Origin: Variovorax sp.
Lineage (GTDB): Bacteria > Pseudomonadota > Gammaproteobacteria > Burkholderiales > Burkholderiaceae_C
Length of the DNA: 64,000 nucleotides
Direction of reading: 5' to 3'
NCBI GenBank assembly: GCA_031375105.1
Contig: JANMHJ010000040.1
Location: 37,798 to 101,797 of the forward strand
This document shows, in pieces, positions 455 to 62,933 of the stretch (its first letter is position 1; each line of letters opens with the position of its first letter). The notes beneath the pieces were generated by a model. It did no database searches. It was not told the origin of the DNA and saw only the letters and a program-made list of their open reading frames with translations. The position numbers and the translations under genes are program-made.

Positions 455-464
455 GACTCGCTTC

Positions 465-4932: not shown

Positions 4933-4969
4933 GCGCAGGTTCTATGACGGCTAACCTGCGATTTTCTTT
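4933..4969 (+). terminator. Rho-independent terminator after the acyl-CoA ligase gene
   Basis: GCGCAGGTT…AACCTGCG hairpin (8-9 bp stem) followed by ATTTTCTTT. Confidence 0.5.
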
Positions 4970-5196: not shown

Positions 5197-6087
5197 TCAC
5201 TGTAAGGCATCATTAATTTGCATAGACAAGTTGCTTTTGCCAATATTGCAGACCTCGCAAAGTGGTTGAAGATTTTCGAGCACAGTTTCTCCGCCCCTAC
5301 TCCAAGGCGTGATGTGATCAACATTAAGGACAACTCCTAGATGAGTTGCTGGAGATCTTCCACACGCACAGCATGCAAACCGGTCTCTGCGGTTTACAAG
5401 AAAACGAAGTCTCCAAGATGGATCGCGCTGAGTTTTGCGTTTTGATGGTTGTGGCGTTTGCTCGGCTTGCGTGGGGACGTATTCGTACCCATTGCTGCTT
5501 GTTGCAGGTTGCTCCATTGATAGCACAAAATTTTCGAGCGCACTTCGCCAAGAGCCAAAGCGTCGCACGTAAGAATGTGCAGATGCTTCAGACAAGAGCG
5601 CTGTCATGTCAGTTTTCTTTGGTTGCCGACCAAGCGACTCCCAAACTTTTGCTAGGTTGCTGAGTAATTCTTCATTAGATGCTCTTGGATGCCAGTTTTC
5701 AGATACTTTCAATCCAGCAGCTTCAAGTGCGATAGGCCATGACCCGAAAGCGCGTTGAATCGTAGCGACTGAGAACTTCCCAATAGGTGAATATTCGGTT
5801 CCAGAAAGAGTTTCTGTTTGAAGGCAGCTTGCAACGGAAATTAAGTCTGCCAGAAGCTCATGCTTTGGAATCGTCATCCGCTTCCCAACCAGCAGTCCGC
5901 TCAGTGCAAGAGCTTTGTTCCAAGAGTCAAAACGGTTCTGAATGGTAGCGGTTGAGAATCTGCCGTTTTCGTTGTATTCCGATTTTGTAAGCGTGTGCTT
6001 GCCAAGACGAGTTGCAGTTGCACGCATATCTTCTAGCAGAACCTCATTGGCACAGTCTCGATTGTCTGGTTCAAGTATGTAGTGCAT
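5197..6087 (-). CDS. Free-standing HNH endonuclease with N-terminal homing-endonuclease-associated repeats
   Basis: C-terminal HNH motif (CCACGRS…HLGVVLNVDHITPWSRGGETVLENLQPLCEVCN). Three N-terminal repeats of about 35 aa (…YNENGRFSTATIQNRFDSWNKALALSGL / …YSPIGKFSVATIQRAFGSWPIALEAAGL / …HSYVRRFGSWRSALENF). The gene lies in a roughly 47% GC pocket. Confidence 0.7.
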   Translation of the reverse strand: MHYILEPDNRDCANEVLLEDMRATATRLGKHTLTKSEYNENGRFSTATIQNRFDSWNKALALSGLLVGKRMTIPKHELLADLISVASCLQTETLSGTEYSPIGKFSVATIQRAFGSWPIALEAAGLKVSENWHPRASNEELLSNLAKVWESLGRQPKKTDMTALLSEASAHSYVRRFGSWRSALENFVLSMEQPATSSNGYEYVPTQAEQTPQPSKRKTQRDPSWRLRFLVNRRDRFACCACGRSPATHLGVVLNVDHITPWSRGGETVLENLQPLCEVCNIGKSNLSMQINDALQ

Positions 6088-26851: not shown

Positions 26852-28806
26852 TGCTCGCAGAACGACCCAACAACATCGAGGAGCCCGCCTTGAGCGAAGC
26901 AAATAAACACAACGACCATCCCAATCAATTCGCCCTGCTCGGCCAACGCCGCTTCGCTCCGTTTTTCTGGACGCAGTTTGCAGGCGCGGCGAATGACAAT
27001 GTTTTTAAATTTGCCTTCACCGTGATGGTCACGTATCAGCTCTCCATCAGCTGGATGCAGCCTGCGATGGCGGGGTTGGTGATTGGGGCGTTGTTTATTT
27101 TGCCATTTTTGTTGTTTTCCGCCACCAGTGGGCAGCTGACTGACAAGTATGAAAAAAGCAAAATCATCCGCTTCGTGAAGAATTTAGAAATTGCGATCAT
27201 GCTGATTGCAGCTTACGGCTTCTTCAATGCCAATGTGCCTGTGTTGCTGGGTTGTACTTTTCTCATGGGCTTGCATTCCACGCTATTTGGCCCAGTGAAG
27301 TTTGCCTACATGCCGCAGGTGCTCAACGAGCGTGAGCTTACAGGCGGCAACGGCATGGTGGAGATGGGCACGTTTGTGGCGATTCTTGCAGGCAATATCG
27401 TTGGCGGTGTTTTGATTGCTCTACCCGGCATCGGTGCTACGTATGTTGCTATCACTTGTATAGCAGCTGCTGTTTTGGGAAGAATCGTTGCGCAGTATAT
27501 TCCGGCCACACCTGCGACCGACCCCACGCTTCAAATCAACTGGAATCCTTTCACCGAGACTTGGAAGAACTTGAAATTAGCGCACGGCAATATCGTCGTC
27601 TTCCGCTCTTTGCTGGGCATCAGTTGGATGTGGTTTTTTGGTGCGGTTTTCTTGAGTCAATTCCCCAGCTTTGCCAAAGACGTGTTGCATGGCAGCTCCA
27701 ATGTGGCTTCGCTCTTGCTCGTCGTTTTCTCGATCGGCATTGCCACGGGCTCGTTGCTGTGCGAGGTATTTTCTCGCAGACATGTGGAGATTGGCCTCGT
27801 ACCGCTGGGCGCGATTGGCATGAGTGTATTTGCGCTGGATTTGTATTTTGCTTCTCGCAGTTTGCCTCAGGCTGAGCTGCTCACCGTGATGCAGTTCATC
27901 AGCATCAGCGCACATTGGCGCGTGATGGCGGATTTGTTTTTGCTCAGCTTGTTTGCGGGGCTCTACAGCGTGCCTATGTATGCGTTGATCCAGCTGCGCA
28001 GCCAGCCCACGCACCGCGCCCGCATCATCGCTGCCAACAATATTTTGAACGCGCTCTTCATGATTGCCAGCAGCCTGATCGTTGGCGCATTGCTCGGCAG
28101 CGGTTTTACGATTCCGCAGGTTTTCTTGTTCACCGCGCTGGCCAATGCGATGGTGGCTATCTACATCTTCCTGCTCGTGCCCGAATACTTCCTGCGCTTC
28201 GTTGCTTGGGTGGCTTCACGCTGCATCTATCGATTCAAAGTCACTGGCGATGAAAACATTCCTACCAGCGGCGCAGCCATCCTCGCTTGCAACCATGTGA
28301 GCTTTGTGGATGCCATTTTGCTCATGGCCGCCAGCCCGCGCCCCATCGTCTTCGTGATGGATCACCGCATCTTCAAAATGCCCGTGCTCGGTTGGTTCTT
28401 CAAACTCGCCAAAGCTATTCCCATTGCTTCTAAAGCTGAAGACCCCGCTGCCTACGAAGCTGCGTTCACAGCCGCTGGTAAAGTGCTCAAAGCAGGCGAT
28501 ATGCTCGCCATCTTCCCCGAAGGCGGTATCACCCGCGACGGTACGTTGCAAGAATTCAAAGGCGGCATCATGAAAATCTTGGAACAAGCCAAGCTACAGG
28601 GTATCGAGCCACCCGTGATTCCCATGGCGCTCACCAATCTCTGGGGCAGCTACTTCAGCCGTATTGAGAAAGACGGCGCGATGATCAGACCGTTTCGTCG
28701 GGGGTTGTTTAATCGGGTGGGGTTGAATGTGGGTATCGCAATTGAGGCACAAGATGTCCAGCCTCAGGCATTGCGCACTAGCGTTCATGCTCTGTTGTCG
28801 CGCTGA
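26851..28806 (+). CDS. Lysophospholipid transporter LplT (MFS) fused to 1-acyl-glycerol-3-phosphate-type acyltransferase (Aas/PlsC-like)
   Basis: N-terminal 12-TM MFS domain. C-terminal acyltransferase with HX4D motif (CNHVSFVDAILL) and FPEGG motif. 651 aa. Confidence 0.8.
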   Translation: MLAERPNNIEEPALSEANKHNDHPNQFALLGQRRFAPFFWTQFAGAANDNVFKFAFTVMVTYQLSISWMQPAMAGLVIGALFILPFLLFSATSGQLTDKYEKSKIIRFVKNLEIAIMLIAAYGFFNANVPVLLGCTFLMGLHSTLFGPVKFAYMPQVLNERELTGGNGMVEMGTFVAILAGNIVGGVLIALPGIGATYVAITCIAAAVLGRIVAQYIPATPATDPTLQINWNPFTETWKNLKLAHGNIVVFRSLLGISWMWFFGAVFLSQFPSFAKDVLHGSSNVASLLLVVFSIGIATGSLLCEVFSRRHVEIGLVPLGAIGMSVFALDLYFASRSLPQAELLTVMQFISISAHWRVMADLFLLSLFAGLYSVPMYALIQLRSQPTHRARIIAANNILNALFMIASSLIVGALLGSGFTIPQVFLFTALANAMVAIYIFLLVPEYFLRFVAWVASRCIYRFKVTGDENIPTSGAAILACNHVSFVDAILLMAASPRPIVFVMDHRIFKMPVLGWFFKLAKAIPIASKAEDPAAYEAAFTAAGKVLKAGDMLAIFPEGGITRDGTLQEFKGGIMKILEQAKLQGIEPPVIPMALTNLWGSYFSRIEKDGAMIRPFRRGLFNRVGLNVGIAIEAQDVQPQALRTSVHALLSR

Positions 28807-50051: not shown

Positions 50052-50816
50052 ATGACCCAAGATTTGTTTCGCCAAGATGCCTATTTGAGCGAATGCAGCG
50101 CCACTGTGCTGGCCGTCACTGAGCAGGGGGTGATTCTGGATCGCACCGTGTTTTATCCGCTTGGCGGCGGGCAGGCGGGAGATGCGGGCTGGCTGGTGTT
50201 GCCCGATGGCCACGAGCTGGTGGTGAGCGATACGCGCAAAGCCAAGGATGCTACGGGGTTGCCCACAACAGATATTTTGCATGTTTTGGCTCCTGAGCAT
50301 CTACAAATCCTACATAGTTTGCTATTAAATTCAGAGCAGACAGGCGCTGCGATACAACTCACCGCTCGCATCGACTGGCCGCGCCGCTATTCGCTGATGC
50401 GCTTTCACACCACTACACATCTGCTGTGTCATCTCGTGCCCCAGCTTGTCAACGGCTGCTCGATCACGGCTGATTACGCACGGCTGGATTTCAACATGAC
50501 CGAGCCGTTAGACAAAGAGCTGCTGAGCGCCGGCATCGCCCAGCTCGTGCAAGCCGCGCATCCCGTCACTTTGAGCAGCATCACTGATGAAGAGCTCGAT
50601 GCCAACCCCGCCCTCGTCAAAAGCATGAGCGTTAGCCCCCCGCGCGGTAGCGGCGTGATCCGCACGATTCGCGTGGGATCCAAGCAACTGATTGACCTGC
50701 AACCCTGCGGCGGCACACATGTGGCCAACACGTCTGAGATTGGCGATGTGCGCGTGATCAAAATTGAGAAAAAATCCGCCACGACGCGGCGAGTGGTGTT
50801 AGGATTTTGCCCATGA
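50052..50816 (+). CDS. alaX: Alanyl-tRNA editing protein AlaX-M (Ser-tRNA(Ala) deacylase)
   Basis: tRNA_SAD-type editing domain with HxxxH (FHTTTHLLCHLV) and CxxxH (CGGTHV) zinc motifs. Confidence 0.8.
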   Translation: MTQDLFRQDAYLSECSATVLAVTEQGVILDRTVFYPLGGGQAGDAGWLVLPDGHELVVSDTRKAKDATGLPTTDILHVLAPEHLQILHSLLLNSEQTGAAIQLTARIDWPRRYSLMRFHTTTHLLCHLVPQLVNGCSITADYARLDFNMTEPLDKELLSAGIAQLVQAAHPVTLSSITDEELDANPALVKSMSVSPPRGSGVIRTIRVGSKQLIDLQPCGGTHVANTSEIGDVRVIKIEKKSATTRRVVLGFCP

Positions 50817-50836
50817 ATCTACAAAGAAAACGCAGC

Positions 50837-51868
50837 ATGCAACCAGATCGTAGGCTGTTGTGCTGGCTGGCTTTGCTGCTTTGCTTTAGTTGGGGTCAGG
50901 CCTCAGCGCAAAGTCCTCAGAGCTTGGTATGGTTGACAGCCGTTCGCTTGTCGGCAGGGATGGTGATGGATCCGATGATGCCTTTGGCCGGCTGCGAGGT
51001 GGCCGCACGTCAGGCGATTGCACAGCGACAAGAGGCGATGGGTGAGCGTCTCAGATCGGAAGCCGGACAATGGTCGCTGCATCCTTTGTCGATGCCCGCT
51101 TCTGCAACGCACTCTGCCGCATTGACAGCCTTGATGCAAGCACCGTTGTGGGTTGTGGATGAAAAAGGCAGCAGACCCGTACAACTGACGCAATTGGTGG
51201 GCGCGCTGGTGCTGTCGAATGGCCCATGCTTGCATCTGAGCAATTTTGAATTGCCGCAGATGCGGCGCTTCAATTTGGCTGACGATGCAGATTTGCTGAT
51301 CTCGACACGGCCCTTGTCCAGCAGCACGCGGCTGGTACGCGCTAGGCAGCCGACGCATCAAGCCTTTGCAAACAATGAATTCAACCCTCGCCTCGAGCGT
51401 CCTTTGGCAGCTTGGTTTTCCTCTCAAGCTGAATTGATGCAGGCGTTTGCCAAAGATCTGCCCAAGCCGAACGATGCTGCTGATCGAGAGATCTGCATTG
51501 CCTCGCATCAAGCCTTCAATGCCACGCTGGACGGCGCATTGAGACCATTGATCAGCCTTCGGGTTCAGTGGTGTGAATGTGCGCAACGTGAAGCGGGCGT
51601 TTGCCGCAGACTGAACGATCCGCGCGGCAAACTAGCGCAGTGGCTCGCCGTGGTCGAGCGGCGAACGGGCGCGATCTGGCACAGCACCGTGGGCGGTGCG
51701 GATGATCTGCAGTTTATGAGCGTGATAGCTTTGGCTACCGGGGGTGATCTGAAAGAAGACGTGATTTGGCTGCTCGAAGAGCGTGCGCAAGGCGTGCAAA
51801 GCTCAGTCTTGATGCGCGAAGACAGGCAGCTCAAGCGGCAAATGATTTCCAGCTACTCGGGCCTGTGA
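50837..51868 (+). CDS. Secreted protein of unknown function, paralogue A (tandem pair)
   Basis: Signal peptide RLLCWLALLLCFSWGQASAQS. Shares conserved blocks with the next ORF (HQAFNATLDGALRPLISLRVQWCECAQ, WLAVVERR, C-terminal ISSYSGL). No recognisable domain. Confidence 0.5.
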   Translation: MQPDRRLLCWLALLLCFSWGQASAQSPQSLVWLTAVRLSAGMVMDPMMPLAGCEVAARQAIAQRQEAMGERLRSEAGQWSLHPLSMPASATHSAALTALMQAPLWVVDEKGSRPVQLTQLVGALVLSNGPCLHLSNFELPQMRRFNLADDADLLISTRPLSSSTRLVRARQPTHQAFANNEFNPRLERPLAAWFSSQAELMQAFAKDLPKPNDAADREICIASHQAFNATLDGALRPLISLRVQWCECAQREAGVCRRLNDPRGKLAQWLAVVERRTGAIWHSTVGGADDLQFMSVIALATGGDLKEDVIWLLEERAQGVQSSVLMREDRQLKRQMISSYSGL

Positions 51869-51902: not shown

Positions 51903-53045
51903 ATGAGCAGCCGACCCGAACCGACAAAATTACATCTGCTGGTAATCATTTTTCTTCTGATTTCATACGTTATGGCGTGGCAAAGCGCTGTCGCGCAAGA
52001 CACTTCATCCGCACCGATCAACGCGCGTTCGACTGCTTATATAAAACCGGCTTTGGTAGCTCCCGAGTGGTTCGTTGCATATCGGACTGACGCGGGTTAT
52101 ATGCTTGATCCAATCGATGAAATGACAACTTGCCCTCAGGCTTTGGAGGCGGAGATATCTCAAAGGCATTTCACATCCAATGGTGCATTGCAAGATGGTT
52201 TGCGGCATTTCTGGGTGCATCCCGTCTCCATCCGGTTACCTGCACAGCAGCAAGCAGATTTAGCGAGGTTTCAAAAAAAGCCTTTGTGGCTCATTGAGGA
52301 AACGGGTGTTCGCCCAATTCGTTTGCCTAATTTGTTGGCCAGATCGTTCGAGACCTACGGGCCATGCATGCATCTGTCTAGTTTTCCAGTAACTGAACCC
52401 AAGCGCGTCAATACGGCTGATTTTTCTGAAGTGATAGTGTCTGTTAAAGCGCAACCTGCTGGAACGCGAATAATTCGCGCGATAAATCCTGCGCACAATG
52501 CATTTAATCAATTGCCAGAAACGAATAGCGGCACAACACCTGAGGAGCGAGCCATAGCGGCTTGGGTATTGAAGCAGCCGAGTGTGCTCAAAGCGTTTGA
52601 AAAAGACTTGCCTAAGCCAGAACCAAAAGAACGTCATCACCTGTGCGTGCCTTCATTTCAGCCCTTCAACGCCACGCTTGATGGCCAATTGCGCAGCATG
52701 CTCAGCTTGCGTTTGCAATGGTGCAATTGCGAGCAAGCCTCGTCCGATGTGCCGAATGCACCATGTGCGAAGTTTGAGTTTCCTTACAACAATAAAGTGC
52801 ATTGGCTGGCAATTGTGGAACGTCGCGGCCAGTCTGCGGGCATAGTTTGGGCAAGCAGCTTGCAATCTGGTGATGCTTTGCAGTTCATGCACTTGAAGGG
52901 CATAGTCACTCGGCCGAGTATTGGAGACGACATACTTTGGATCGGCGACATTCATTACGAAGGTTACTCAACCAGCTTGATGCAACGAGTGCCCCGAGCT
53001 ACCAAGCTGCGCTCCATCAAGATTTCCAGCTACTCGGGACTGTGA
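51903..53045 (+). CDS. Secreted protein of unknown function, paralogue B (tandem pair)
   Basis: Signal peptide LHLLVIIFLLISYVMAWQSAVAQD. Blocks FQPFNATLDGQLRSMLSLRLQWCNCEQ, WLAIVERRGQ and C-terminal ISSYSGL are shared with paralogue A. Confidence 0.5.
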   Translation: MSSRPEPTKLHLLVIIFLLISYVMAWQSAVAQDTSSAPINARSTAYIKPALVAPEWFVAYRTDAGYMLDPIDEMTTCPQALEAEISQRHFTSNGALQDGLRHFWVHPVSIRLPAQQQADLARFQKKPLWLIEETGVRPIRLPNLLARSFETYGPCMHLSSFPVTEPKRVNTADFSEVIVSVKAQPAGTRIIRAINPAHNAFNQLPETNSGTTPEERAIAAWVLKQPSVLKAFEKDLPKPEPKERHHLCVPSFQPFNATLDGQLRSMLSLRLQWCNCEQASSDVPNAPCAKFEFPYNNKVHWLAIVERRGQSAGIVWASSLQSGDALQFMHLKGIVTRPSIGDDILWIGDIHYEGYSTSLMQRVPRATKLRSIKISSYSGL

Positions 53046-53116
53046 TGGAGTAGTTTGACCAGAAGCTAGACTTTGCCCTACAATTTGGGGATCAATTCTA
53101 GTTGAGGAGCCCCACC

Positions 53117-53443
53117 ATGCAAACTTTCAGCATCCGCGATCTGCGCGACCGCTCGGGTGAGCTTACGCATGAGGCCGAAGCGGGGCGCATGTCTTTGGTG
53201 ACCAAGCATGGGCAGCCGTTGTTTGTGACTTTGCCTTTTACCGAGGATTTGTTGCAGCATGGGGTGCGCAAAGCGCTGGCGATGTCATTGCTGCGTGCGG
53301 GTGATATTTCTATTGGCAAAGCTGCTGAAATTGCAGGCATGCCGTATTTGGATTTTTTGCCACTGGTGAAGGCCATGGGGATGTATGTGGTGGATTGCGA
53401 TCCTGCCGAATTGGCAAATGAGCTGAAATTATTGGGCGGCTGA
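53117..53443 (+). CDS. Type II antitoxin: Phd/YefM-like N-domain fused to UPF0175-family domain
   Basis: MQTFSIRDLRDRSGELTHEAEAGRMSLVTKHGQPLFVTLPF is Phd-like; …LLRAGDISIGKAAEIAGMPYLDFLPLVKAMG is UPF0175. ATG with GAGGAG RBS, and an ATGA overlap with the next gene. Confidence 0.65.
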   Translation: MQTFSIRDLRDRSGELTHEAEAGRMSLVTKHGQPLFVTLPFTEDLLQHGVRKALAMSLLRAGDISIGKAAEIAGMPYLDFLPLVKAMGMYVVDCDPAELANELKLLGG

Positions 53444-53949
53444 TGCAGACGCGCTTGGATATTTTGGTCTCAGACACGGGGCCATTGGTTGCGTTGGCAA
53501 AGTTGCATTTGCTGCTGCAATTGCATCGCGTTATTTCGCGTTTGTATTTGCCTAGGGCGGTGTTCGTTGAGGCCACGCAAGCTGGTAAACCGTGTGCCCA
53601 AGAATTGGCTCAGTTTGTTCAAGCGAACCCAGATTGGGTCATTTGCCAAACGGAGATTGAGCATGTGTTGATTGATGCGCTGTCTGGGCGCTTTGGCGCA
53701 GGCGAAGTGCAGGCGATGTATTGGGCAGGGGAGCTGAAAGTTGCGTTGTTGCTCGATGAGCGCAGAGCGCGAGCTGCTGCCAAAGAGCTGGGCTTGCAAG
53801 TGGTAGGCTTAGGAGCGGTTTTGCTCAGATGCAAACAGCTTGGCATCTTGCCGTTTGTGCTGCCCGCACTGAAGGAGCTGGAAAAAATGGAATATTTTCT
53901 ATCTCCTCAAGTGATCAAAGCAATCGCAGCGATGGCTGATGAACAATGA
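53443..53949 (+). CDS. DUF3368-family (PIN-like) toxin
   Basis: LVSDTGPLVALAKLHLLLQL… is PIN-like. Cognate partner of UPF0175 antitoxins. Confidence 0.65.
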   Translation: MQTRLDILVSDTGPLVALAKLHLLLQLHRVISRLYLPRAVFVEATQAGKPCAQELAQFVQANPDWVICQTEIEHVLIDALSGRFGAGEVQAMYWAGELKVALLLDERRARAAAKELGLQVVGLGAVLLRCKQLGILPFVLPALKELEKMEYFLSPQVIKAIAAMADEQ

Positions 53950-56852: not shown

Positions 56853-57620
56853 TCATCGCGTAAAGCCTGTCGCCGCGCGGCCACTGCCCTTGGTCACCAT
56901 TGGGGGCACTTCGATCATGCCCATCTCGTCTAAAAACACGCTGGAGCGCGCCTCTTCTGTGGGCCAAGCCTGATCCCAACGATCTGGTTTTGCTGTACTT
57001 GATTTTTTCTTGGGCACATTGGCTTCGCGCAACTCCAACCGTGTGGCCTGCCATTCCGATTCGGGATGCTGCATCGACATCATTTGAGAATGCTGCTCGG
57101 CGGCTTGCAATTCAGGCATCACCATCGCGCGGATGGTTTTCGTGTCAGGCAAATCGTCACTGGTGATTTGCCAAATAGGAATTTGCGCCATCTCCAGTGC
57201 TTTGAGCTTGCGTTGCGTGCCCTCGGATGCCTGTCGTCCCGGCTTACCCGATTGCAACTGAATCACGCCCAGCACATCCCCCTGCTCAGAGCAGATCAAG
57301 AAATCCACGCAGCGTCGCCCCACGCTGCCAAACCATTGGTTGTAGGAGCGGTTTTGCGTCACGCTCAAGAATCGCGCGAGTGCAATCTGCGGCATCAAAA
57401 GGCATTCTGGCAATGCACGGCGCAGCAACACCAACACGCGCAGCTCGGCAGGTGTGAGTGGGCGCATCGTGCGCGGCTGCCAGTCGTCTAAGCGAAATGG
57501 CCGAACCTTGCCGCTGTGCACCACAGGCGCAGAGCGCTGCCACAAAACCCAAGTGATTGCAGCCAACCCAAGCACCACCAAAGCCGCCAGGGGCCAAACC
57601 CAAGTTGAGAGCATATTCAT
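56853..57620 (-). CDS. DUF2726 (NERD/restriction-endonuclease-like fold) membrane-anchored protein
   Basis: N-terminal TM helix, then …LRVLVLLRRALPECLLMPQIALARFL…WFGSVGRRCVDFLICSEQGDVLGVIQL… matching the DUF2726 pattern. Start set at the ATG at 57618-57620. Confidence 0.6.
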   Translation of the reverse strand: MNMLSTWVWPLAALVVLGLAAITWVLWQRSAPVVHSGKVRPFRLDDWQPRTMRPLTPAELRVLVLLRRALPECLLMPQIALARFLSVTQNRSYNQWFGSVGRRCVDFLICSEQGDVLGVIQLQSGKPGRQASEGTQRKLKALEMAQIPIWQITSDDLPDTKTIRAMVMPELQAAEQHSQMMSMQHPESEWQATRLELREANVPKKKSSTAKPDRWDQAWPTEEARSSVFLDEMGMIEVPPMVTKGSGRAATGFTR

Positions 57621-57749
57621 AACACCCCATATAAGAAAGTTATTGCCAAGATGCCGCGCAGACACAATTGCCAGCTCGGCAGCGTTTGTTGCATTATGTG
57701 GCCGAGAATGCAAGCGCAGGCAAGCACACGTATGGAGTGTGACGGAGTG

Positions 57750-58973
57750 TTAACCCTTCACGCACACTACTTGCTTGAGCGTGTGCACCACGTCGACCAG
57801 ATCGCTTTGCGCCGCCATCACTGCGTCAATGTCCTTGTAGGCAGCAGGTGTCTCGTCAATCACGTCTTTGTCTTTGCGGCATTCCACGCCTTCTGTCGCA
57901 TTGCGGTGATCTGCCAGCGTGAAGCGGCGCTTGGCTTCGCCTCGGCTCATGATGCGCCCCGCGCCGTGTGAACACGATTCAAACGACTCCGGATTGCCTG
58001 TGCCGCGCACGATGTAGCTGCGCGCGCCCATGCTGCCGGGGATGATGCCCAACTGGCCTTTTTTTGCGCTCACTGCACCTTTGCGTGTGACGAATACGTC
58101 TTCCCCAAAATGCGTTTCCTTTTGCACATAGTTGTGGTGACAGTTCACCGCTTCGATATGCGATTGAAAACTCTTGTGGATCACAGTTTTCGCAGCATCA
58201 ATCACGCGGCGCATCATTACCTCGCGATTGGTGGCTGCAAACTTCTGCGCCCAGCCCACAGCGCGCACATAGTCGCCAAAATAACGTGCGCCTTCCTCGA
58301 AATAAGCCAGATCACGATCCGGCAGATTCGCGTTGTTGCGCAGCGCATCTTGCTTGGCCAGCTCGATAAACATCGTGCCGATGAAGTTACCCACACCGCG
58401 CGAGCCCGAATGCAGCATGAACCACACAAAGCCCGCTTCGTCTAGGCACACTTCAATGAAGTGATTGCCTGAGCCTAGCGTGCCCAAATGGTTGCGATGA
58501 TTCGTCTTGCCGATCTTCGGATAGTCTTTGCATAGCTCGGTGAATTCAGGCTCAAGTTGAGCCCAAGCCGTGTCCACCGAGCCCGGCACTTTATGCCAAG
58601 CCCCCGGATCACGCGTACCCGGCACTCGCCCATGCGGCACAGCGCGCTCAATCGCCGAGCGCAGCGGCGCCAGGTTGTCTGGCAAATCCTCCGCGCGCAG
58701 CGTCGTCTTCGCCGCCATCATGCCGCAGCCAATGTCAACACCGACAGCGGCGGGAATGATGGCTTTGATCGTCGGAATCACCGAGCCAATCGTCGCGCCA
58801 ATGCCGAAATGCACATCCGGCATCACCGCCACATGCTTAAACACAATTGGCAGCCGAGCCGCATTCGTCAGTTGACGACGCGCCTCATCCTCCACCGGCA
58901 CACCGCGCGTCCACATCTTAATAGGCACACCGCCGGGGGTTTGTTCTTCAATATAGTTAGTTTCCATGTCCAT
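57750..58973 (-). CDS. rtcB: RtcB-family RNA 3'-phosphate ligase
   Basis: RtcB motifs throughout (…MPDVHFGIGATIGSV…, …GSGNHFIE…, …HGAGR…). Start MDMETNY with AAGGAG RBS. Confidence 0.9.
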   Translation of the reverse strand: MDMETNYIEEQTPGGVPIKMWTRGVPVEDEARRQLTNAARLPIVFKHVAVMPDVHFGIGATIGSVIPTIKAIIPAAVGVDIGCGMMAAKTTLRAEDLPDNLAPLRSAIERAVPHGRVPGTRDPGAWHKVPGSVDTAWAQLEPEFTELCKDYPKIGKTNHRNHLGTLGSGNHFIEVCLDEAGFVWFMLHSGSRGVGNFIGTMFIELAKQDALRNNANLPDRDLAYFEEGARYFGDYVRAVGWAQKFAATNREVMMRRVIDAAKTVIHKSFQSHIEAVNCHHNYVQKETHFGEDVFVTRKGAVSAKKGQLGIIPGSMGARSYIVRGTGNPESFESCSHGAGRIMSRGEAKRRFTLADHRNATEGVECRKDKDVIDETPAAYKDIDAVMAAQSDLVDVVHTLKQVVCVKG

Positions 58974-59034
58974 GATTTTCTCCTTGAAACTTGGGGTGTG
59001 CTTTGCAGCACGCCCCAAGCCCTAATGATTGTGC

Positions 59035-60178
59035 TTAACGAAGCTTTACCAGCCCATTCAGCACCTGATCCAAACCTCCGAACACGGAGATCTTGTCGAT
59101 ACGCTCAGCCACGCGCTCCAGTGTCTCCAGCTCTTTCAGGCGCAGTGCGATGGGGTTGTCCTCCATCACCTTGGCCGTGTTGAGCAGAGAGCGAGTAGCA
59201 GCTGTTTCTTCGCGGCGGCGGATCACGTTGGCTTCAGCGGATTTACTCGCTTCCACCACCTGAGCGAAGATGGTTTTCATCTCGCCAGGCAGCACGATAT
59301 CTTTCACGCCCACGCTTTGGAGCTGTAGGCCTTGCGCGGAAAGCTTAGCGCGAACATGCCCGAGAACGACCTCGTCGATGACGGTTTTGTTCTCCAGCAG
59401 CTCGTCGAGCGTGCGCGTGCCAACGGCAGCGCGCAGGCCGAGCTGCAGCTCGCGATACAGATGCTCTGCTGGCTTGGCCAGTTGGGCAAATGCCTCACGC
59501 ACATCGGTGTAGCGCCACGTTGCAGACAGGTTCAGACGCAGGCCGACTTTATCGCGCGTCAGAATATCTTGCCCTGAAACTTCCAACGTTTGCAGACGCA
59601 AATCCACCAGCTCCACGGCCACTTGGCGGCCAAACTTCCAGAAAGCGTAAGCACCGGGTACGAGCAGCTTGTCAATCTTGCTGTCCACCGTGAGCACGCC
59701 CACGTTGTGTTCAGGCACTTGGCTCATGAGCAGGCCGGTGAGCCCCTGCACCGCGCGTTGGCGCAGTTGGGTTTGCGTCAGGCGCTGCGCGAGAGCAGCA
59801 GTGAGTTCAAAAGTCTCAACGATCTCCAGCACCTCGATGCGGACATCCACCAAGCCTTTCCAATACAGGCGGCGAGTAGCAGGCGCGAGGATTTCGACGA
59901 GGACGCCGTTTTCCACGCGCAGACCCACTTGCGTCTCCGTCAGTTCGACGCGCACGAACTCTTCAGCTACCACTTCAGGCTCTTTGGCCATGAGGTAGTC
60001 TGCCAAGCTGTGCGCGAAGGCGGTTTGGTCGATAGCAAAAGTATCGATGCGCAGCTTGTCAAAGCCCTCAAACAGCCAGTAGCGGCCAGGCTTCATGATG
60101 CGCTCGAAATCGCCATTGCGTAGCAAGATGCCGCGCTCGTTTTTCTTGATGGTCACACGTTTGAACATGTTGTTCTCC
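59035..60178 (-). CDS. SPFH/band-7 domain protein (cytoplasmic, no TM)
   Basis: MFKRVTIKKNERGILLRNGDFERIMKPGRYWLFEGFDKLRIDTF is SPFH-like, followed by a long coiled-coil C-terminus. AAGGAGA RBS 7 nt upstream of ATG 60178; 13-nt gap to rtcB. Confidence 0.7.
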
Positions 60179-60474
60179 TTATGAAATGTGTAAGAGTGAA
60201 TAAAGGTGCCGTTACAGGAGCTGCAGTGGATGATGAATGCCTGCCTGAAGGTGATGCCGTGCGCTTTAAGCGTTTGCGAAGTGCAATCAAGACATTCGCG
60301 CTGGCTCAAGCTGGCGGCTCACGCCCAGGCCGCGTGCCCATCACACGGGCCGCAGTCGCTGACAGCGTTTGATTGGGCTCTTTGAATCAGCAAGCTGATT
60401 CGTTGAACTGCATCTCGCGCTGCGTTCGGCGGGTGGTCTTGCGACCGTTTGGTTAGCTTGGCTTTTCAGACCAA

Positions 60475-60548
60475 AGTTTGGAACAGGAGTCGAACCTGCG
60501 ACAGACGATTTATCAGATCGTTGCTCTTACCAACTGAGCTATCCAGTG
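60475..60548 (-). pseudogene. Degenerate tRNA-Ile(GAT)-like gene (acceptor stem disrupted; no CCA)
   Basis: Canonical D-arm (TAGCTCAGTTGGTAAGAGC), anticodon arm (ACGAT-CTGATAA-ATCGT) and T-arm (GCAGG-TTCGACT-CCTGT). Only 4 of 7 acceptor pairs form (5' CACTGGA vs 3' TCCAAAC). The 5' end overlaps the CCA of the upstream minihelix by 2 nt. Confidence 0.4.
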
Positions 60549-60600
60549 GTGGTCATGGCGGGACTCGAACCCGCGCCTTACGGCACACCATGTCATGACC
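60547..60600 (-). other. tRNA-like minihelix (acceptor stem, T-arm and GNRA hairpin; no D or anticodon arm), CCA encoded
   Basis: GGTCATG-ACATGGTGT-GCC GTAA GGC-GCGGG TTCGAGT CCCGC-CATGACC-A-CCA. Perfect 7-bp acceptor stem, canonical T-arm, and a GTAA tetraloop hairpin in place of the anticodon arm. Confidence 0.3.
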
Positions 60601-60730
60601 CTATCTGAGCTTGAAACTGTGCGGCATACGTAGCACCGATCTTTCAAAAGAGATGCTGCGCACCGGCGGAGCGCGCTTTCGCGCCAACCCCTGACCTGTT
60701 AGCGTTCAGTTCTTCACAACAGATTCTTGT

Positions 60731-60759
60731 GCGGTTGAACTAGTGCTTAGTTCAACCGC
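60731..60759. terminator. Perfect 12-bp-stem hairpin at the 3' end of the array-embedded HNH gene (terminator or processing site)
   Basis: GCGGTTGAACTA-gtgct-TAGTTCAACCGC. The HNH stop codon lies in the loop. Followed on the + strand by GATCCTTTT. Confidence 0.4.
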
Positions 60760-61319
60760 GATCCTTTTGGCAGGCGAGCTGCCAGCCATTCATGCACGTC
60801 GGCGCGAATGTGTCGACCTGCGAGTAGGAAGTCTTCGAAGCGGTTGGGCACATAGGGTGCGTAGAGCAGCGGCATACCGGCTTCTTCCGGTGTGCGCGCT
60901 GCTTTGCGTCCGTTGCATGCGCCGCAAGCTGTGACCAGATTCATCCAGCTCCATGCGCCGCCGCGTGATGCGGGCAGGATGTGCTCGCACTGCAGATCAC
61001 GCTCATGAAACTGGTCGCCGCAGTAAGCGCAGGTGAATCGGTCACGCCGAAACAGCTTGTGTTTACTGAAGCCGGGTACGATGTCAAACAAATTGACCCG
61101 TGCCGAGCCATGTAGCGCGATGATGGGATAGACCTCCAGTACCGAGGGCTTGCCGCGCGGCACATTGAAGCCGCCACGCAGCACAGCAAGCGGGCTCGCG
61201 CCCTCGCACCAAGCCACAGAATCTGCAGCCACATGCGTTGCCGCTTGTTCAAGAGAAATCCAAGCCTGCGGCGTGCCTTGAATATCGAGTTGCAGCACAT
61301 GGCTGCGATGGGTTTGCAT
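60747..61319 (-). CDS. HNH endonuclease embedded in the tRNA array
   Basis: CAYCGDQFHERDLQCEHILPASRGGAWSWMNLVTACGACNGRK HNH motif. AAGGAG RBS. Located between the tRNA-His gene and the minihelix. Confidence 0.75.
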   Translation of the reverse strand: MQTHRSHVLQLDIQGTPQAWISLEQAATHVAADSVAWCEGASPLAVLRGGFNVPRGKPSVLEVYPIIALHGSARVNLFDIVPGFSKHKLFRRDRFTCAYCGDQFHERDLQCEHILPASRGGAWSWMNLVTACGACNGRKAARTPEEAGMPLLYAPYVPNRFEDFLLAGRHIRADVHEWLAARLPKGSRLN

Positions 61320-61351: not shown

Positions 61352-61426
61352 TGGGTTGTTCAACCAGATTCGAACTGGTGTCTTCAGGGTCACATCCTGA
61401 AATGCTGCCGCTGCACCATGAACAAC
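61352..61426 (-). tRNA. tRNA-His (GTG), with G-1 and encoded CCA; non-host-like sequence
   Basis: G(-1)-TTGTTCA-TG-GTGC…; anticodon arm TCAGG-ATGTGAC-CCTGA; T-arm ACCAG-TTCGAAT-CTGGT; acceptor TGAACAA; C73; CCA. G-1:C73 is diagnostic for His. Confidence 0.65.
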
Positions 61427-61431
61427 ATATT

Positions 61432-61509
61432 TGGTATCTCGTGAAGGATTCGAACCCTCAACCCCCGACTTCGTAAGACGGTGCTCTGATTCCGTTGAGC
61501 TAACGAGAT
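61432..61509 (-). tRNA. tRNA-Arg (ACG), CCA encoded; A1-U72, AT-rich acceptor
   Basis: ATCTCGT-TA-GCTC…GAGC-A-CCGTC-TTACGAA-GTCGG-GGGTT-GAGGG-TTCGAAT-CCTTC-ACGAGAT-A-CCA. One T·T mismatch in the anticodon stem. Confidence 0.7.
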
Positions 61510-61518
61510 AAAAACTGA

Positions 61519-61591
61519 CGCCCCGAGAAAGTCTCGAACTTCCAACCTGCGGATTTCGAGGCCGCTGCTCTGCCAATTGAGCAATCGGGAC
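61519..61591 (-). tRNA. Class-I (short variable loop) tRNA with CGA (Ser-type) anticodon; no encoded CCA; identity uncertain
   Basis: GTCCCGA-TT-GCTC-AATTGGCA-GAGC-A-GCGGC-CTCGAAA-TCCGC-AGGTT-GGAAG-TTCGAGA-CTTTC-TCGGGGC-G. Full cloverleaf but a 5-nt variable loop, which is incompatible with canonical tRNA-Ser. Confidence 0.45.
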
Positions 61592-61595
61592 ATAT

Positions 61596-61671
61596 TGGCG
61601 TCTCTTATCGGAGTCGAACCGATGGCTTTCTCCTAGACAGGGAGACACTCTGGCCACTGAGTTAACGAGAC
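61596..61671 (-). tRNA. tRNA-Asp (GTC), CCA encoded; pyrimidine at position 37
   Basis: GTCTCGT-TA-ACTC-AGTGGCCA-GAGT-G-TCTCC-CTGTCTA-GGAGA-AAGCC-ATCGG-TTCGACT-CCGAT-AAGAGAC-G-CCA. One G·A acceptor mismatch. Confidence 0.6.
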
Positions 61672-61677
61672 GAAAAT

Positions 61678-61752
61678 TGGCAAACCGCAGGGGTATCGAT
61701 CCCCTCTCTACAGATTGAAAGTCTGCTGGCCACACCTGCTGCCTCGCGGTTC
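61678..61752 (-). tRNA. tRNA-Glu (TTC)-like, CCA encoded; unusual A54 T-loop (ATCGATA)
   Basis: GAACCGC…GCAGA-CTTTCAA-TCTGT-AGAG-AGGGG-ATCGATA-CCCCT-GCGGTTT-G-CCA. The acceptor pairs include a G1·U72 wobble. Confidence 0.5.
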
Positions 61753-61757
61753 ATAAA

Positions 61758-61835
61758 TGGTCTGGGTGGCTGGCTTCGATCCAGCGGCCTCCTGCTTCCA
61801 AAGCAGGCCGTCTACCTGACTGACATTACACCCAG
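61758..61835 (-). tRNA. tRNA-Pro (TGG)-like, CCA encoded; C1-G72, extra nucleotide at 8-9, A54 T-loop
   Basis: CTGGGTG-TAA-TGTC-AGTCAGGTA-GACG-G-CCTGC-TTTGGAA-GCAGG-AGGCC-GCTGG-ATCGAAG-CCAGC-CACCCAG-A-CCA. Confidence 0.5.
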
Positions 61836-61841
61836 AAAAAT

Positions 61842-61918
61842 TGGTGCCCCAGGGGAGATTCGAACTCCCAGAATCCTGTGTCTGAGACAGGCATGTATGC
61901 CGGTTCCATCACCGGGGC
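61842..61918 (-). tRNA. Class-I (short variable loop) tRNA with CAG (Leu-type) anticodon, A73, CCA encoded; identity uncertain
   Basis: GCCCCGG-TG-ATGG…ACAT-G-CCTGT-CTCAGAC-ACAGG-ATTCT-GGGAG-TTCGAAT-CTCCC-CTGGGGC-A-CCA. First gene of the array (promoter-proximal). Confidence 0.45.
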
Positions 61919-61936
61919 GTGAAGTGTTGTGATTTC

Positions 61937-62076
61937 ACTTCGGCTGTGTCCACACGCGAAGACCCGCACATGCGGATCAAACTGTTCGCTGCACAGGCAA
62001 GAGCGACTTGCATGCACATGCGCTGCATCGCAGTTTGCGAGAATTCGAGCAGCGTGGTGTGTGGGCACACCCGAAG
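61937..62076. ncRNA. Structured leader or putative ncRNA upstream of the tRNA array: about 22-bp inverted repeat arms flanking about 100 nt rich in internal palindromes
   Basis: CACTTCGGCTGTGTCCACAC (61937-61956) matches the reverse complement of GTGTGTGGGCACACCCGAAGTG (62055-62076). The interior holds GCGAAGACCCGCACATGCGG…, TGCATGCA and related palindromes. Confidence 0.3.
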
Positions 62077-62195
62077 TGAAACGGCGTTTGATCTAACGAT
62101 CAAAACAGCCGAACTTCTTTTCAACAAATTGTTAAAGAACAGTGACGCATTTGCACAATGCAAAGCTGCGCCCTCATGGCACGATGACCACGATG

Positions 62196-62239
62196 AAAAA
62201 AGACAACAAAAAAGCCCGATCTCGTTTCCAAGACCGGGC
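62196..62239 (-). terminator. Orphan Rho-independent terminator on the minus strand, upstream of the tRNA-array promoter region
   Basis: Minus strand reads GCCCGGTCTTGGAAACGAGATCGGGC followed by TTTTTTGTTGTCTTTTTT. No convincing minus-strand ORF lies upstream of it. Confidence 0.5.
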
Positions 62240-62537
62240 CTACAGAGGTAGGTGAAGACGGTACGTGAGTTACACGTGACCCTCGCCCGGTGGGGCTGAA
62301 TAATCCAATGCCTTCGGCTCAAAGCCTAGGCGCGAGCTATGCATGACATTCAGCCGCGCACAGCCACACCAAGCCTGAGCGGCTAAGCGTGTGGGGGATG
62401 CGATACGGTTAAACATATGAAGCTCTTGAAAAAATTAAAATGCAGAAAACTGCGATAGAACGTAATGTAAAGACTCTTTACTGGATCGTCAACATCTGCG
62501 ACAATTATTTTTTGATTTCGTTGCGAATTTTCAACAC

Positions 62538-62933
62538 ATGCAAGACTTTTCCGTCAACGCCACAGTTGTGCGCCGCACCAATCTCAATATGCTTTTGCAT
62601 GAGTTTGTGAAAACCCGCATCGCGCAAGGTGCAGCGCCCAAAGGCTTGGAGCAGGAGTTTGCGCAGCAAATACAAATCTCCCCCAGTATGCTCAGCCAAA
62701 TCAAAAGCTCACGCCCGATTGGTGACAAGCTCGCGCGGCAAATTGAGGTGCTCTGCGGCTTGGCGGCACATTGGCTGGATGAGACGCAAGCTGTGGCAGA
62801 AGATTTGCCCAATGAGGCGGAAGATCACATCGCGGATTTGGCGCGCCAAGCTTGGCGGCAATGCAATGCCGAACAGAAACGCGAGCTGCGCTTGCATTTG
62901 CGTGCCTTGGCGCAGCCAGAAAAGAAAGCCTAA
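62538..62933 (+). CDS. XRE/Cro-type helix-turn-helix DNA-binding protein
   Basis: …EFAQQIQISPSMLSQIKSSRPIGDKLARQIEVLCGLAAHWLDE… is an HTH_XRE-like motif. Preceded by an AT-rich promoter region. Confidence 0.55.
   Translation: MQDFSVNATVVRRTNLNMLLHEFVKTRIAQGAAPKGLEQEFAQQIQISPSMLSQIKSSRPIGDKLARQIEVLCGLAAHWLDETQAVAEDLPNEAEDHIADLARQAWRQCNAEQKRELRLHLRALAQPEKKA

Follow-up and report, generated by a model that had tools for sequence, protein, structure and literature searches.

The 64-kb stretch of the Variovorax sp. genome analyzed here (assembly GCA_031375105.1, contig JANMHJ010000040.1, positions 37,798 to 101,797), hereafter the window, with coordinates counted from its first letter, carries an array of seven minus-strand tRNA genes at 61352-61918. 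They were detected by ARAGORN over the whole window, in exact agreement with the positions and anticodons given in an earlier note made from the sequence alone. In the order of transcription the anticodons read CAG, TGG, TTC, GTC, CGA, ACG, and GTG. An eighth call on the same strand, an 'Ile' gene with anticodon GAT, lies at 60476-60547, 0.8 kb downstream of the array, and ARAGORN returned no tRNA gene beyond these eight in the 64 kb. Following the array on the same strand, the locus comprises (i) a gene encoding an HNH endonuclease, (ii) a structured RNA that includes the 'Ile' call, (iii) a gene encoding an SPFH/Band-7 protein, (iv) the gene of the RNA ligase RtcB, and (v) a gene encoding a DUF2726 protein, whereas a 620-nt leader separates the first tRNA from a divergent gene encoding a small helix-turn-helix (HTH) protein. 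The earlier note had missed the linkage to HNH, tRNA-like RNA, SPFH, and RtcB, and it is this linkage that explains the array: it is an accessory, HNH-linked tRNA array residing in an RtcB/Band-7/tRNA-like-RNA operon.

The seven genes span 567 bp, a density of ~12 genes per kb, and are separated by spacers of 4-6 nt, a narrower range than the 4-9 nt first reported. The spacers, bounded by the acceptor stems, are all A/T-rich (ATTTTT, TTTAT, ATTTTC, ATAT, GTTTTT, and AATAT). Six of the seven genes score 50-55.4 bits against the Rfam tRNA model RF00005, whose gathering score is 29 bits, with E values of ~1e-8 to 1e-9 for the whole window, and these six scores place the array far beyond chance. 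Covariance scoring thus upholds the cloverleaf folds proposed earlier for all genes except Glu(TTC), which fails, and the encoded CCA end likewise stands for six genes, with the CGA gene displaying a G-UCA 3' end instead. The features that the earlier note had taken as foreign to host tRNAs hold for fewer genes than it described: (i) a first base other than G occurs in three genes, Arg (A1-U72), His (U1-A72), and Pro (C1-G72, a pair also present in E. coli proM), the remaining four starting with G1; (ii) acceptor stems are A/T-rich in the His and Arg genes and not in the other five; (iii) an A54 T-loop is found in Pro (AUCGAAG) and Glu (AUCGAUA); and (iv) a pyrimidine at position 37 is confined to Asp, with the anticodon loop CUGUCUA.

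The conservation of the locus was followed in a one-genome-per-species scan, which yielded 327 matches to the HNH protein and of which the best 80 loci were examined, labelled by L-numbers. Upstream counts refer to the 63 loci with at least 5 kb of sequence upstream and downstream counts to the 60 with at least 5 kb downstream, as obtained with ARAGORN and tblastn. Almost all of these best 80 loci are labelled Burkholderiales or Betaproteobacteria, including the genera Rubrivivax, Piscinibacter, Rhizobacter, Ideonella, Aquabacterium, Variovorax, Ottowia, Ramlibacter, and Methylibium, together with two metagenome-assembled genomes (MAGs) labelled Planctomycetota and Chitinophaga. The HNH gene is directly preceded by tRNAs in 58 of the 63 loci, with array lengths ranging from 0 to 23 (at least 5 tRNAs in 42 loci, at least 10 in 20, and at least 20, up to 23, in 6). 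On the downstream side, RtcB is encoded on the same strand in 45 of the 60 loci and SPFH follows HNH in 28 of them. A lone tRNA sits between HNH and SPFH in 22 of these 28 loci, and ARAGORN detected no lone tRNA without SPFH among the 60.

The long arrays share the order Gly-Thr-Glu-Ala-Asp-Phe-Arg(ACG)-Tyr-Trp-Cys-Arg(TCT)-Asn-Ile-Pro-His-Lys-Leu(CAG)-Met-Ser-Lys-Gln-Val-Arg(CCG), with which the run Glu-Asp-[Phe-like mosaic]-Arg(ACG)-His of the window is colinear. The closest locus, L001, from a 'Variovorax' MAG, encodes an HNH protein 91% identical to that of the window and lacks SPFH. It shares both flanks (HAD and DUF2726), so the locus appears stable within this lineage. The array of L001 reads Leu(CAG)-Glu-Asp-Phe-Asn-Arg-His-Lys, displaying Phe, Asn, and Lys in place of the Pro gene and the CGA mosaic of the window. 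The difference in content from L001, the span of array lengths, the fast divergence of the genes, and their non-canonical structures bear out the earlier proposal that these are accessory and not housekeeping tRNAs. Genes of the window are 87-99% identical to those of L001, 65-82% to the remaining orthologs, and 58-77% to their E. coli counterparts, and CCA is encoded by almost all array genes across related loci.

The individual genes, all on the minus strand, differ in structure. The CAG gene (61842..61918; G1-C72, A73, CCA, A37; ARAGORN, Rfam 54 bits), called 'Leu', and the CGA gene comprise 77 and 76 nt, respectively, each with a 5-nt variable loop instead of the long arm of class II. Because of these short variable loops, neither is a canonical class II tRNA-Leu or tRNA-Ser, E. 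coli leuT measuring 87 nt against the 77 nt of the class I CAG gene. Orthologs of the CAG gene with 83-99% identity, carrying a CAG or TAG anticodon, occur in L001, L076, L059, L047, and L045, and other loci hold class II Leu(CAG) genes of 83-88 nt. The tRNA-Pro(TGG) gene (61758..61835; C1-G72, A73, CCA, A54, A37; ARAGORN, Rfam 50 bits) is missing from L001, where the direct alignment discloses an insertion/deletion difference, and is 94% identical to the copy of L056. The TTC (Glu) gene (61678..61752) is aberrant and detected by ARAGORN only, with G1.U72, no U8, a 3-bp D stem, A54, G73, and CCA. It stays below the Rfam tRNA threshold, and its best match within the clan, obtained at a permissive threshold, is tRNA-Sec with 33 bits, where the gathering score is 47. 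Besides U8, this Glu form, common to L001 (87% identity), is missing most of what characterizes the canonical-looking Glu genes in other arrays, to which it is at most 66% identical. The Glu and Arg(ACG) cloverleaves are kept across loci, with compensatory changes in 13 of 21 and 11 of 21 pairs, respectively.

The tRNA-Asp(GTC) gene (61596..61671; Rfam 55.4 bits) displays G73, CCA, a G6.A67 mismatch, and U37 and A38 in its CUGUCUA loop. The CGA gene (61517..61592; Rfam 50.3 bits) combines a C.U mismatch in the anticodon stem with the G-UCA end and has an ortholog nowhere else, its best match being a Trp gene at 74%. In direct alignment it extends over the separate Phe and Asn genes of L001, the D arm and body being Phe-like and both acceptor strands Asn-like, and it is therefore read, from its sequence, as a recombinant (mosaic) pseudo-tRNA. 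The array ends with tRNA-Arg(ACG) (61432..61509; A1-U72, A73, CCA; Rfam 55 bits) and tRNA-His(GTG) (61352..61426; U1-A72, C73, CCA; Rfam 55 bits), the latter with an encoded G-1 at 61426 that pairs with C73 in the standard bacterial form of tRNA-His.

Other arrays of the family hold unusual tRNA forms of their own. The standard G-1:C73 form of tRNA-His is shared by the window, L001, L035, L045, L047, L050, L056, L059, and L061, whereas most of the related arrays (e.g., L002:4878-4950) carry a T at position -1 and end in ...CACCCCCA, with one C beyond C73-CCA, and many of these genes have C33. Several related arrays include a class II tRNA with the Cys anticodon GCA, of 86-87 nt, with a long variable arm, a 3-bp D stem, C1-G72, and U73; a tRNA-Cys with a long arm is unusual. 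The carriers comprise L002 (4364-4450), L007, L009, L010, L014, L019, L020, L022, L034, and others, and L034 holds two copies (428-513 and 4478-4563). Finally, anticodon loops of 8 or 6 nt, reported by ARAGORN as 4- or 2-base anticodons, appear in some related arrays, usually at the Gly(GCC) slot (L007:3522 and L020:3586, 'atga'; L044:3480, 'gtta'; L015:4235, 'ct'; and L024:5425, 'tt').

The retention of array members is strongly non-uniform. Over the 63 loci, Arg(ACG) and His are each found in 43, followed by Leu(CAG) (37 loci), Asp (33), Glu (32), and Gln(UUG) (31), with Tyr, Val(TAC), and Arg(TCT) among the rare members, in 7-8 loci. Arg(ACG), His, Leu(CAG), Asp, and Glu are also among the commonest genes of arrays with eight or fewer members, and all five of these most retained members are present in the window, whose array amounts in essence to this core with Pro added. 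The anticodons match the abundant codons of the 43 long open reading frames (ORFs) of the window and not the rare ones: CGC/CGT make up 75% of Arg codons and CTG 30% of Leu codons, and both codons of Asp, His, and Glu are also read. The array therefore adds redundancy and not new decoding capacity, and this match to abundant codons speaks against a phage origin.

The anticodon loops of the retained members depart from those of E. coli in a recurrent manner. The Asp loop CUGUCUA (U37/A38) is present in 35 of 38 family copies, compared with CUGUCAC (A37/C38) in E. coli aspV; array Leu(CAG) has A37, compared with G37 in E. coli; array His genes are variable at positions 32 and 33, including C33; and the array Phe loop is mostly UUGAAGG. 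Most family Pro copies (20-23 of 24) have G37, and the Pro gene of the window is alone in having A37. Van den Berg et al. (2023, PMC10264068) proposed that loop-flank changes of this pattern shield the tRNAs of phages against anticodon nucleases.

The HNH endonuclease (190 aa; 60747..61319, minus strand; Pfam HNH_5, E 1.2e-15) starts 33 nt after tRNA-His. Its core, CxxC...H...N...CxxC...N/K, is invariant in 41 homologs, and its N- and C-terminal regions are family-specific, with solved HNH domains matching only residues 87-156 in a PDB sequence search. More than 1,150 homologs were found in the database, the top 120 at 75-94% identity, and over the loci with RtcB downstream of HNH the conservation of HNH (75-94%) compares with that of RtcB (72-92% identity). 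PADLOC matched the cassette with generic HNH models only (PtuB and Cas9), and a search of NCBIfam gave nothing above its cut-offs. Further downstream, also on the minus strand, the SPFH/Band-7 protein (424 aa; 59035..60309; Pfam Band_7 PF01145, E 8.1e-30) ends 16 nt before the RtcB RNA 3'-phosphate ligase (422 aa; 57750..59018), which covers profile positions 1-426 of 426 of PF01139 (E 2.6e-127). The DUF2726 protein (56853..57713; Pfam E 3.4e-10) begins 36 nt after RtcB and occurs as a neighbour elsewhere only in L001 (60% identity); its membership in the unit is uncertain. A scan of the minus strand between the array and SPFH detected no hairpin of more than 7 bp followed by a T-tract.

The 437-nt non-coding stretch that separates HNH from SPFH, and that contains the 'Ile' tRNA, encloses a conserved structured RNA of ~280 nt (60423..60706, minus strand), whose consensus structure, obtained with RNAalifold from 38 loci, has 52 pairs; compensatory changes occur in 28 of these. 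This RNA comprises (i) two 5' hairpins, (ii) a mini tRNA-like element of 54 nt (60547-60600, minus strand) with a 7-bp acceptor stem, a small hairpin, a T arm, and an ACCA end, (iii) an adjoining tRNA body, (iv) a GNRA hairpin, GGUCGCAAGACC (60435-60446, minus strand), and (v) a closing 3' strand. The tRNA body is the 'Ile' GAT call (60476-60547, minus strand), with a 4-bp acceptor stem and an Rfam tRNA score of 52.8 bits on model positions 4-67 only. Its anticodon changes by locus (GAU, CAU, GAA, GCA, and others) and its sequence is 84-88% identical across loci, making it more conserved than the array genes. The gene is the tRNA associated with band 7 (b7a-tRNA), as this element is described in the text that cites its prediction (see below). 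The mini element gives sub-threshold Rfam hits to tmRNA, mascRNA, and YrlA; the YrlA score (RF02553) is 30.2 bits against a gathering score of 69, which falls short of a Y RNA, and the ORF list and Pfam disclosed no Ro-like ORF (Rsr/Ro60) in the operon.

The leader that precedes the array displays a succession of putative regulatory elements, none of which matches a known Rfam family in the 620 nt even at a permissive threshold. The divergent HTH protein (131 aa; 62538..62933, plus strand; weak Pfam HTH_3, E 0.033) is a candidate repressor, with an ortholog of 45-84% identity at the same divergent position in 49 of the 63 loci. On the minus strand, a promoter scan finds a sigma-70-like promoter, TTGACG-17-TACATT (62464..62492), whose spacer and -10 region are spanned by a perfect palindrome, GTAAAGAGTCTTTAC (62467-62481), a candidate operator that occurs once in the window, compared with 0.05 expected occurrences. 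The corresponding GTAAAG-N3-CTTTAC with an upstream TTGAC is found in 27 of 50 loci by a strict regular expression, and the block is conserved in the alignment. A small ORF of 48 codons follows (MFNR...APPGEGHV*; 62270..62416, minus strand), a candidate leader peptide; 48 of the 50 loci have a counterpart, 40-80 codons long and with the ending ..PG(E)G(S/H)(A/V)*. First, second, and third codon positions have near-equal substitution (0.43/0.44/0.46), which indicates weak constraint on the peptide sequence, and the ORF has no run of regulatory codons.

About 28 nt after the small ORF lies an intrinsic terminator with a 13-bp stem and a U-tract (62208..62241, minus strand), a possible attenuator, and a GGCCCGG...CCGGGCC-T(3-6) terminator recurs in most loci. 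A segment of the ORF, ACCGGGC (62285-62291), is complementary to the 5' arm of this terminator; CCGGG is invariant in the last codons of the ORF, and the pair flanking it covaries (UA 21, AU 4, UG 2, and CG 1), with a covariation score reached by 7 of 500 shuffles. Such an arrangement could form a trp-like attenuator in which a ribosome at the stop codon would mask the antiterminator. Because the helix is short, the attenuator is put forward as a hypothesis. It would resemble the trp/his leader-peptide attenuators in having a small ORF, a terminator, and a possible competing helix, but it is putative and the small ORF lacks their regulatory codons. The palindrome on the promoter and the terminator ahead of the array are together suggestive of conditional expression.

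Downstream of the terminator, a boxB-like hairpin followed by an rrn-type boxA, GTTCTTTAACAA, was recognized by motif comparison (62125..62171, with boxA at 62129-62140, minus strand). The 20-mer CACTGTTCTTTAACAATTTG, unique in the window, is identical at 18 of 20 positions to the 'cac-boxA-spacer' CACugcucuuuaacaauuua of E. coli rrn, and GCTCTTTAACAA with at most one mismatch is found in 34 of the 50 loci, always after a hairpin. The element matches an rrn-type antitermination site, in which a hairpin stands before boxA (GCUCUUUAACAA) ahead of the genes of a stable-RNA operon, and is a putative binding site of Nus factors. The E. coli rRNA leader (boxB-boxA-boxC) likewise displays a hairpin and then CACUGUUCUUUAACAAUUUG, but in the window the site stands before tRNA and protein-coding genes and not before rRNA genes. 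The last part of the leader (61926..62085, minus strand) is highly structured (-108.6 kcal/mol, z = -6.06), with a closing stem of ~25 bp (62059-62083 paired with 61931-61955) that abuts tRNA(CAG), shows compensatory changes in L001, and is a possible processing stem. The idea that this region is a decayed first tRNA was rejected, as it folds into a long stem conserved with L001.

The locus brings together two neighbourhoods already on record. Tran et al. 2016 (PMC4758250) defined a tRNA array unit by a minimum of 20 tRNA genes and a minimum density of 2 per kb, and the L-arrays are those longer than gene accretion predicts, horizontally spread and supernumerary, with a conserved HNH gene, for which a homing role has been proposed, and frequently RtcB in their neighbourhood (Santamaria-Gomez et al. 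2021, PMC8421152). In the window the density exceeds this bound and the linked HNH gene is present, whereas the seven genes fall short of 20. Patchy spread on mobile replicons holds for the family and not for the locus of the window. As orthologous loci include arrays of 20-23 genes (6 of 63), the window represents a short array within a lineage to which true L-arrays also belong. A tblastn search of plasmids with the HNH protein found copies of ~70% identity on conjugative plasmids and megaplasmids of Variovorax, Polaromonas, and Methylibium PM1, and matches of 35-45% to the HNH core on plasmids of Nostoc/Anabaena, Acaryochloris, Mycobacterium, and Mycolicibacterium. The HNH of Anabaena pCC7120delta (45% identity over the core, E 4e-14) lies directly before 24 detected tRNAs of the trn operon, that of a Mycolicibacterium alvei plasmid inside a 28-tRNA array, and that of Methylibium PM1 RPME01 (70% identical) directly after a 27-tRNA array. 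The plasmid arrays inspected also hold 75-78-nt 'Leu' genes and a short 'Ser(CGA)'.

The best studied relative is the trn operon of Anabaena PCC 7120, with the HNH gene all8564. Like the array of the window, it is dense, same-strand, and closely spaced, includes a class I 'Leu' and a short 'Ser(CGA)', carries a repeat overlapping the promoter that suggests repression, and is associated with an HNH of the same family and with RtcB. It comprises 26 tRNAs compared with 7, and the HNH of the window lies downstream of its array and has an extra conserved N-terminal region of ~85 residues. Experimentally, the Anabaena array is silent, is co-induced with the HNH gene and rtcB by translation inhibitors, and aids survival, with 23 of its 26 tRNAs charged in vivo (PMC8421152), and its repressor is TrcR, a ribbon-helix-helix (RHH) protein (Wang et al. 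2023, PMC10272220). TrcR acts with direct repeats, whereas the window displays a divergent HTH candidate and a palindrome; rtcB lies elsewhere in the Anabaena genome, whereas RtcB, Band-7, and the tRNA-like RNA are physically part of the array operon here. The small ORF, terminator, and rrn-type boxA of the window leader are not among the elements reported for Anabaena.

For the second neighbourhood, bioRxiv 10.1101/312249 cites a 2016 bioinformatic description by Burroughs and Aravind, in which a Band-7 protein and a gene predicted as 'b7a-tRNA' lie next to RtcB. All three components, RtcB, the adjacent SPFH/Band-7 protein, and the tRNA-like gene, are present in the window. According to the citing text that neighbourhood has three parts; relative to that description, the window adds a regulated array and HNH in front, and its b7a-tRNA is one domain of a ~280-nt RNA with a second, mini tRNA-like element. 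In terms of what is already known, therefore, the L-arrays with their HNH and RtcB association and, as far as the citing text describes it, the group of RtcB, Band-7, and b7a-tRNA stand on record.

Three other systems offer partial likenesses. The Salmonella rsr-yrlBA-rtcBA operon (Ro60, YrlA, RtcB, and RtcR) is likewise an RtcB operon with a tRNA-mimicking non-coding RNA, but the window contains true tRNA genes and lacks Ro/Rsr, RtcA, and RtcR/sigma-54. That operon was reportedly linked to tRNA damage by Hughes et al. in 2020. Phage tRNA clusters and the T4 tRNA region with SegB and Pnk/Rnl likewise display packed tRNAs, changes flanking the anticodon, a linked nuclease, and an RNA ligase; the locus of the window is bacterial-encoded, with RtcB instead of Rnl and an HNH instead of a GIY-YIG nuclease. 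The Methylibium petroleiphilum PM1 array on RPME01, from the same order Burkholderiales, has HNH after the array and a similar gene order. This array differs in its plasmid location and its length, in the AlkB and HD-domain genes that interrupt it, and in the absence of SPFH and RtcB from its surroundings; in the list of Tran et al. 2016 it appears without mention of HNH or RtcB (PMC4758250). In this locus, L082, the HD-domain and AlkB dioxygenase genes occupy 4185-5537 inside the 27-tRNA array. Alkylated RNA is among the substrates that AlkB-type enzymes can repair, in keeping with a theme of nucleic-acid repair.

Taken together, the gene content, the experiments on Anabaena, the regulatory motifs, and the non-random, loop-modified set of tRNAs point, as the most likely function, to inducible backup and repair of the tRNA pool by a module in which a short member of the L-arrays has been fused to an RtcB/Band-7/b7a-tRNA module; we hold this reading to be probable. 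Transcription would start at the sigma-70 promoter, with the divergent HTH protein as the likely repressor acting at the palindrome over the spacer and -10 region. The small ORF and terminator could function as a leader-peptide attenuator, letting RNA polymerase pass when ribosomes slow, and the rrn-type boxA would then favour termination-resistant elongation across the untranslated array to HNH, SPFH, and RtcB. The A/U-rich spacers of 4-6 nt and the encoded CCA ends would facilitate the release of mature tRNAs. Under damage to the tRNA pool or to translation, as by tRNA-cleaving toxins, toxin-antitoxin nucleases, or ribosome-targeting antibiotics, the operon would provide extra copies of the tRNAs most at risk, which would be charged and read abundant codons, and the altered anticodon-loop flanks of some of them may escape the nuclease. 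RtcB, aided by the tRNA-like RNA and the Band-7 protein, might reseal cleaved tRNAs, and for HNH the possibilities include upkeep or spread of the array and action on nucleic acid while the response is under way.

Several observations weigh against this proposal. The function is extrapolated from a cyanobacterium with a different regulator (TrcR) and an unlinked rtcB, and the view that the array duplicates housekeeping genes is one we infer from variability among relatives. The terminator between promoter and array would block expression unless read through, the promoter scan of the leader detected no second promoter, and the attenuator helix comprises only a 6-bp core and one covarying pair. 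Among the protein components, the AlphaFold2 model of HNH, built on a 41-sequence alignment, reaches a predicted local distance difference test (pLDDT) score of only 43, and no PADLOC model matched SPFH, RtcB, or the HTH protein. The Glu gene and the CGA mosaic look defective and the Pro gene of the window has A37, which fits partial decay of the array. The reference for a 'canonical' anticodon loop was E. coli, which is not a betaproteobacterium. Among tRNA-cleaving toxins, colicin D attacks tRNA-Arg and colicin E5 the tRNAs for His, Asp, Asn, and Tyr; the tie between the retained set and toxin targets draws on these specificities, and no toxin of the colicin D/E5 type was found in the window.

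The rival readings of function differ in what the array RNAs would do. A narrower form of the backup reading, tentative and on balance doubtful, holds that the operon serves self-protection against tRNA-cleaving toxins delivered by colicins, contact-dependent inhibition (CDI), or toxin-antitoxin systems: the loop-altered tRNAs would be spares for precisely those tRNAs that the toxins target, made poor substrates by changes such as Asp U37/A38, Leu-CAG A37, and His 32/33, RtcB would act with a two-domain tRNA-like guide or sensor RNA on a Band-7 scaffold to rejoin cleaved housekeeping tRNAs, and the attenuator, responding to slowed ribosomes, and antitermination would switch the whole on. Alternatively, the array RNAs might be decoys for nucleases or, once cleaved, sensors or cofactors for HNH, Band-7, and RtcB in a YrlA-like manner, which we regard as unlikely. 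The sub-threshold Glu gene and the CGA mosaic without CCA indeed look unfit for decoding, and so do forms in related loci, such as loops of 6 or 8 nt, C33 in His and Gly genes, and class II Cys; the tRNA-like RNA of the operon, with its truncated acceptor stem and variable anticodon, is hardly a decoder and gives the weak YrlA-like hit. Against this, six of the seven genes keep a full cloverleaf and six a CCA end, with the G-1:C73 pair in His and C1-G72 with A73 in Pro, which are identity elements for charging. Anticodons are moreover conserved within orthologous groups and the stems covary, which argues for selection on decoding. The Anabaena study raises a 'sponge' role for such RNAs and also finds 23 of 26 array tRNAs aminoacylated (PMC8421152).

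The remaining rivals concern the origin of the locus. The HNH might be a homing endonuclease that spreads itself and the tRNAs as a selfish mobile cassette, as SegB does in T4, the array of the window being in decay and its link to RtcB incidental. HNH-linked arrays on conjugative plasmids and megaplasmids and in distant phyla, a gene content of 0-23, the mosaic and aberrant Glu genes, and the homing role put forward in PMC8421152 all agree with such a cassette, and for the family the plasmid-borne arrays and those of distant phyla also sustain the horizontal acquisition proposed in the earlier note. For the window locus itself that proposal finds no footing: GC is 0.55-0.56 across the region, like the rest of the window and without a shift, the flanks are shared with L001, and the wider surroundings are ordinary chromosomal genes (HAD hydrolase, AhpC/TSA redoxin, DsbD, an AlaX-like editing protein, and a UPF0175/DUF3368 pair). 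With the order HTH/array/HNH/tRNA-like RNA/SPFH/RtcB recurring in most loci, dedicated regulation of the array by a putative operator, terminator, and boxA, an HNH as conserved as RtcB and invariant in its active site, and the non-uniform retention of anticodons, a purely selfish cassette seems quite unlikely. Descent from a phage tRNA set, as a prophage remnant or a transferred block supplementing the codon usage of accessory genes, is very improbable and largely refuted already, despite the tight packing, the non-G1 starts, and the unusual positions 37 and 54 that had first suggested it. No phage gene was identified among the ORFs and Pfam matches within 8 kb on either side of the array, and 50,697 phage records searched by blastn with the array gave only single-tRNA-sized hits, covering at most 19% of it at 72-75% identity, a generic tRNA similarity. 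Distant HNH homologs (30-41% identity, tblastn) do occur in jumbo phage and actinophage genomes, but the two inspected, Ralstonia phage RsoM2USA and Gordonia phage Mareelih, have no tRNAs near the homolog. A close relative of HNH (72-73% identical) is found in only 3 of the 2.9 million viral contigs of IMG/VR. In these (L087-L089, positions 1-3100) HNH is the first gene at the contig edge, followed by a tyrosine integrase and without tRNAs, so that it marks a provirus boundary and suggests a prophage integrated just downstream of HNH, at the usual site of the tRNA-like RNA. The close relatives are chromosomal or on megaplasmids in ~300 Burkholderiales genomes, the anticodons read the commonest codons of the window, and the array is not phage DNA. 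An ordinary housekeeping tRNA operon, finally, would encode CCA, read abundant codons, and carry the rrn-type boxA that is a hallmark of core stable-RNA operons, and the E. coli argX-hisR-leuT-proM operon has a similar amino-acid mix. This is scarcely credible for an array whose content differs between closest relatives and across orthologous loci, whose orthologs share 65-82% identity within one order and 58-77% with E. coli, in which the Leu gene is of class I, the Glu gene aberrant, and the CGA gene a mosaic pseudo-tRNA, and whose promoter-overlapping palindrome, possibly an operator, and terminator would make expression conditional.

The backup and repair reading places two puzzles, the purpose of supernumerary bacterial tRNA arrays and the in vivo substrate of bacterial RtcB, in a single regulated operon with a tRNA-mimicking RNA, found in the window and in ~300 Burkholderiales genomes, where they become jointly testable, with relatives such as Variovorax, Rubrivivax, and Methylibium as likely culturable carriers. 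The core set (Arg-ACG, His, Leu-CAG, Asp, Glu, and Gln) and the family-wide loop changes would predict which tRNAs are attacked in nature, and self-protection, if true, would give a physiological role to both bacterial RtcB and accessory tRNA arrays. A caution also follows for annotation, as chromosomal tRNAs with 'phage-like' features do not necessarily signal a prophage. In the literature covered, which was partial and is no proof of novelty, we did not find described the merger of these two neighbourhoods, across Burkholderiales, in one regulated operon, nor core arrays of fewer than 20 genes, the rrn-type boxA, the leader with small ORF and terminator, or the two-domain tRNA-like RNA. The components themselves are known in outline, their joint function is in all respects one we infer, and part of the array of the window looks degenerate.

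Among other features of the window, the UPF0175/DUF3368 genes form an overlapping pair (53102-53949, plus strand) ~4 kb past the end of the operon, predicted to be of the antitoxin/PIN-like toxin type. Close by on the plus strand, two adjacent paralogous ORFs (50807-51868 and 51903-53045, 353 and 380 aa), both ending in ..SSYSGL and both with an N-terminal hydrophobic, signal-peptide-like stretch, lie beside the AlaX-like tRNA-editing domain protein (50052-50816); the 353-aa ORF has no Pfam match. A full-length match to the Burkholderia small RNA Bcj11 (RF02835), indicative of a betaproteobacterial host, is located at 27566-27687 (plus strand), with a score of 63.4 bits against a threshold of 49.

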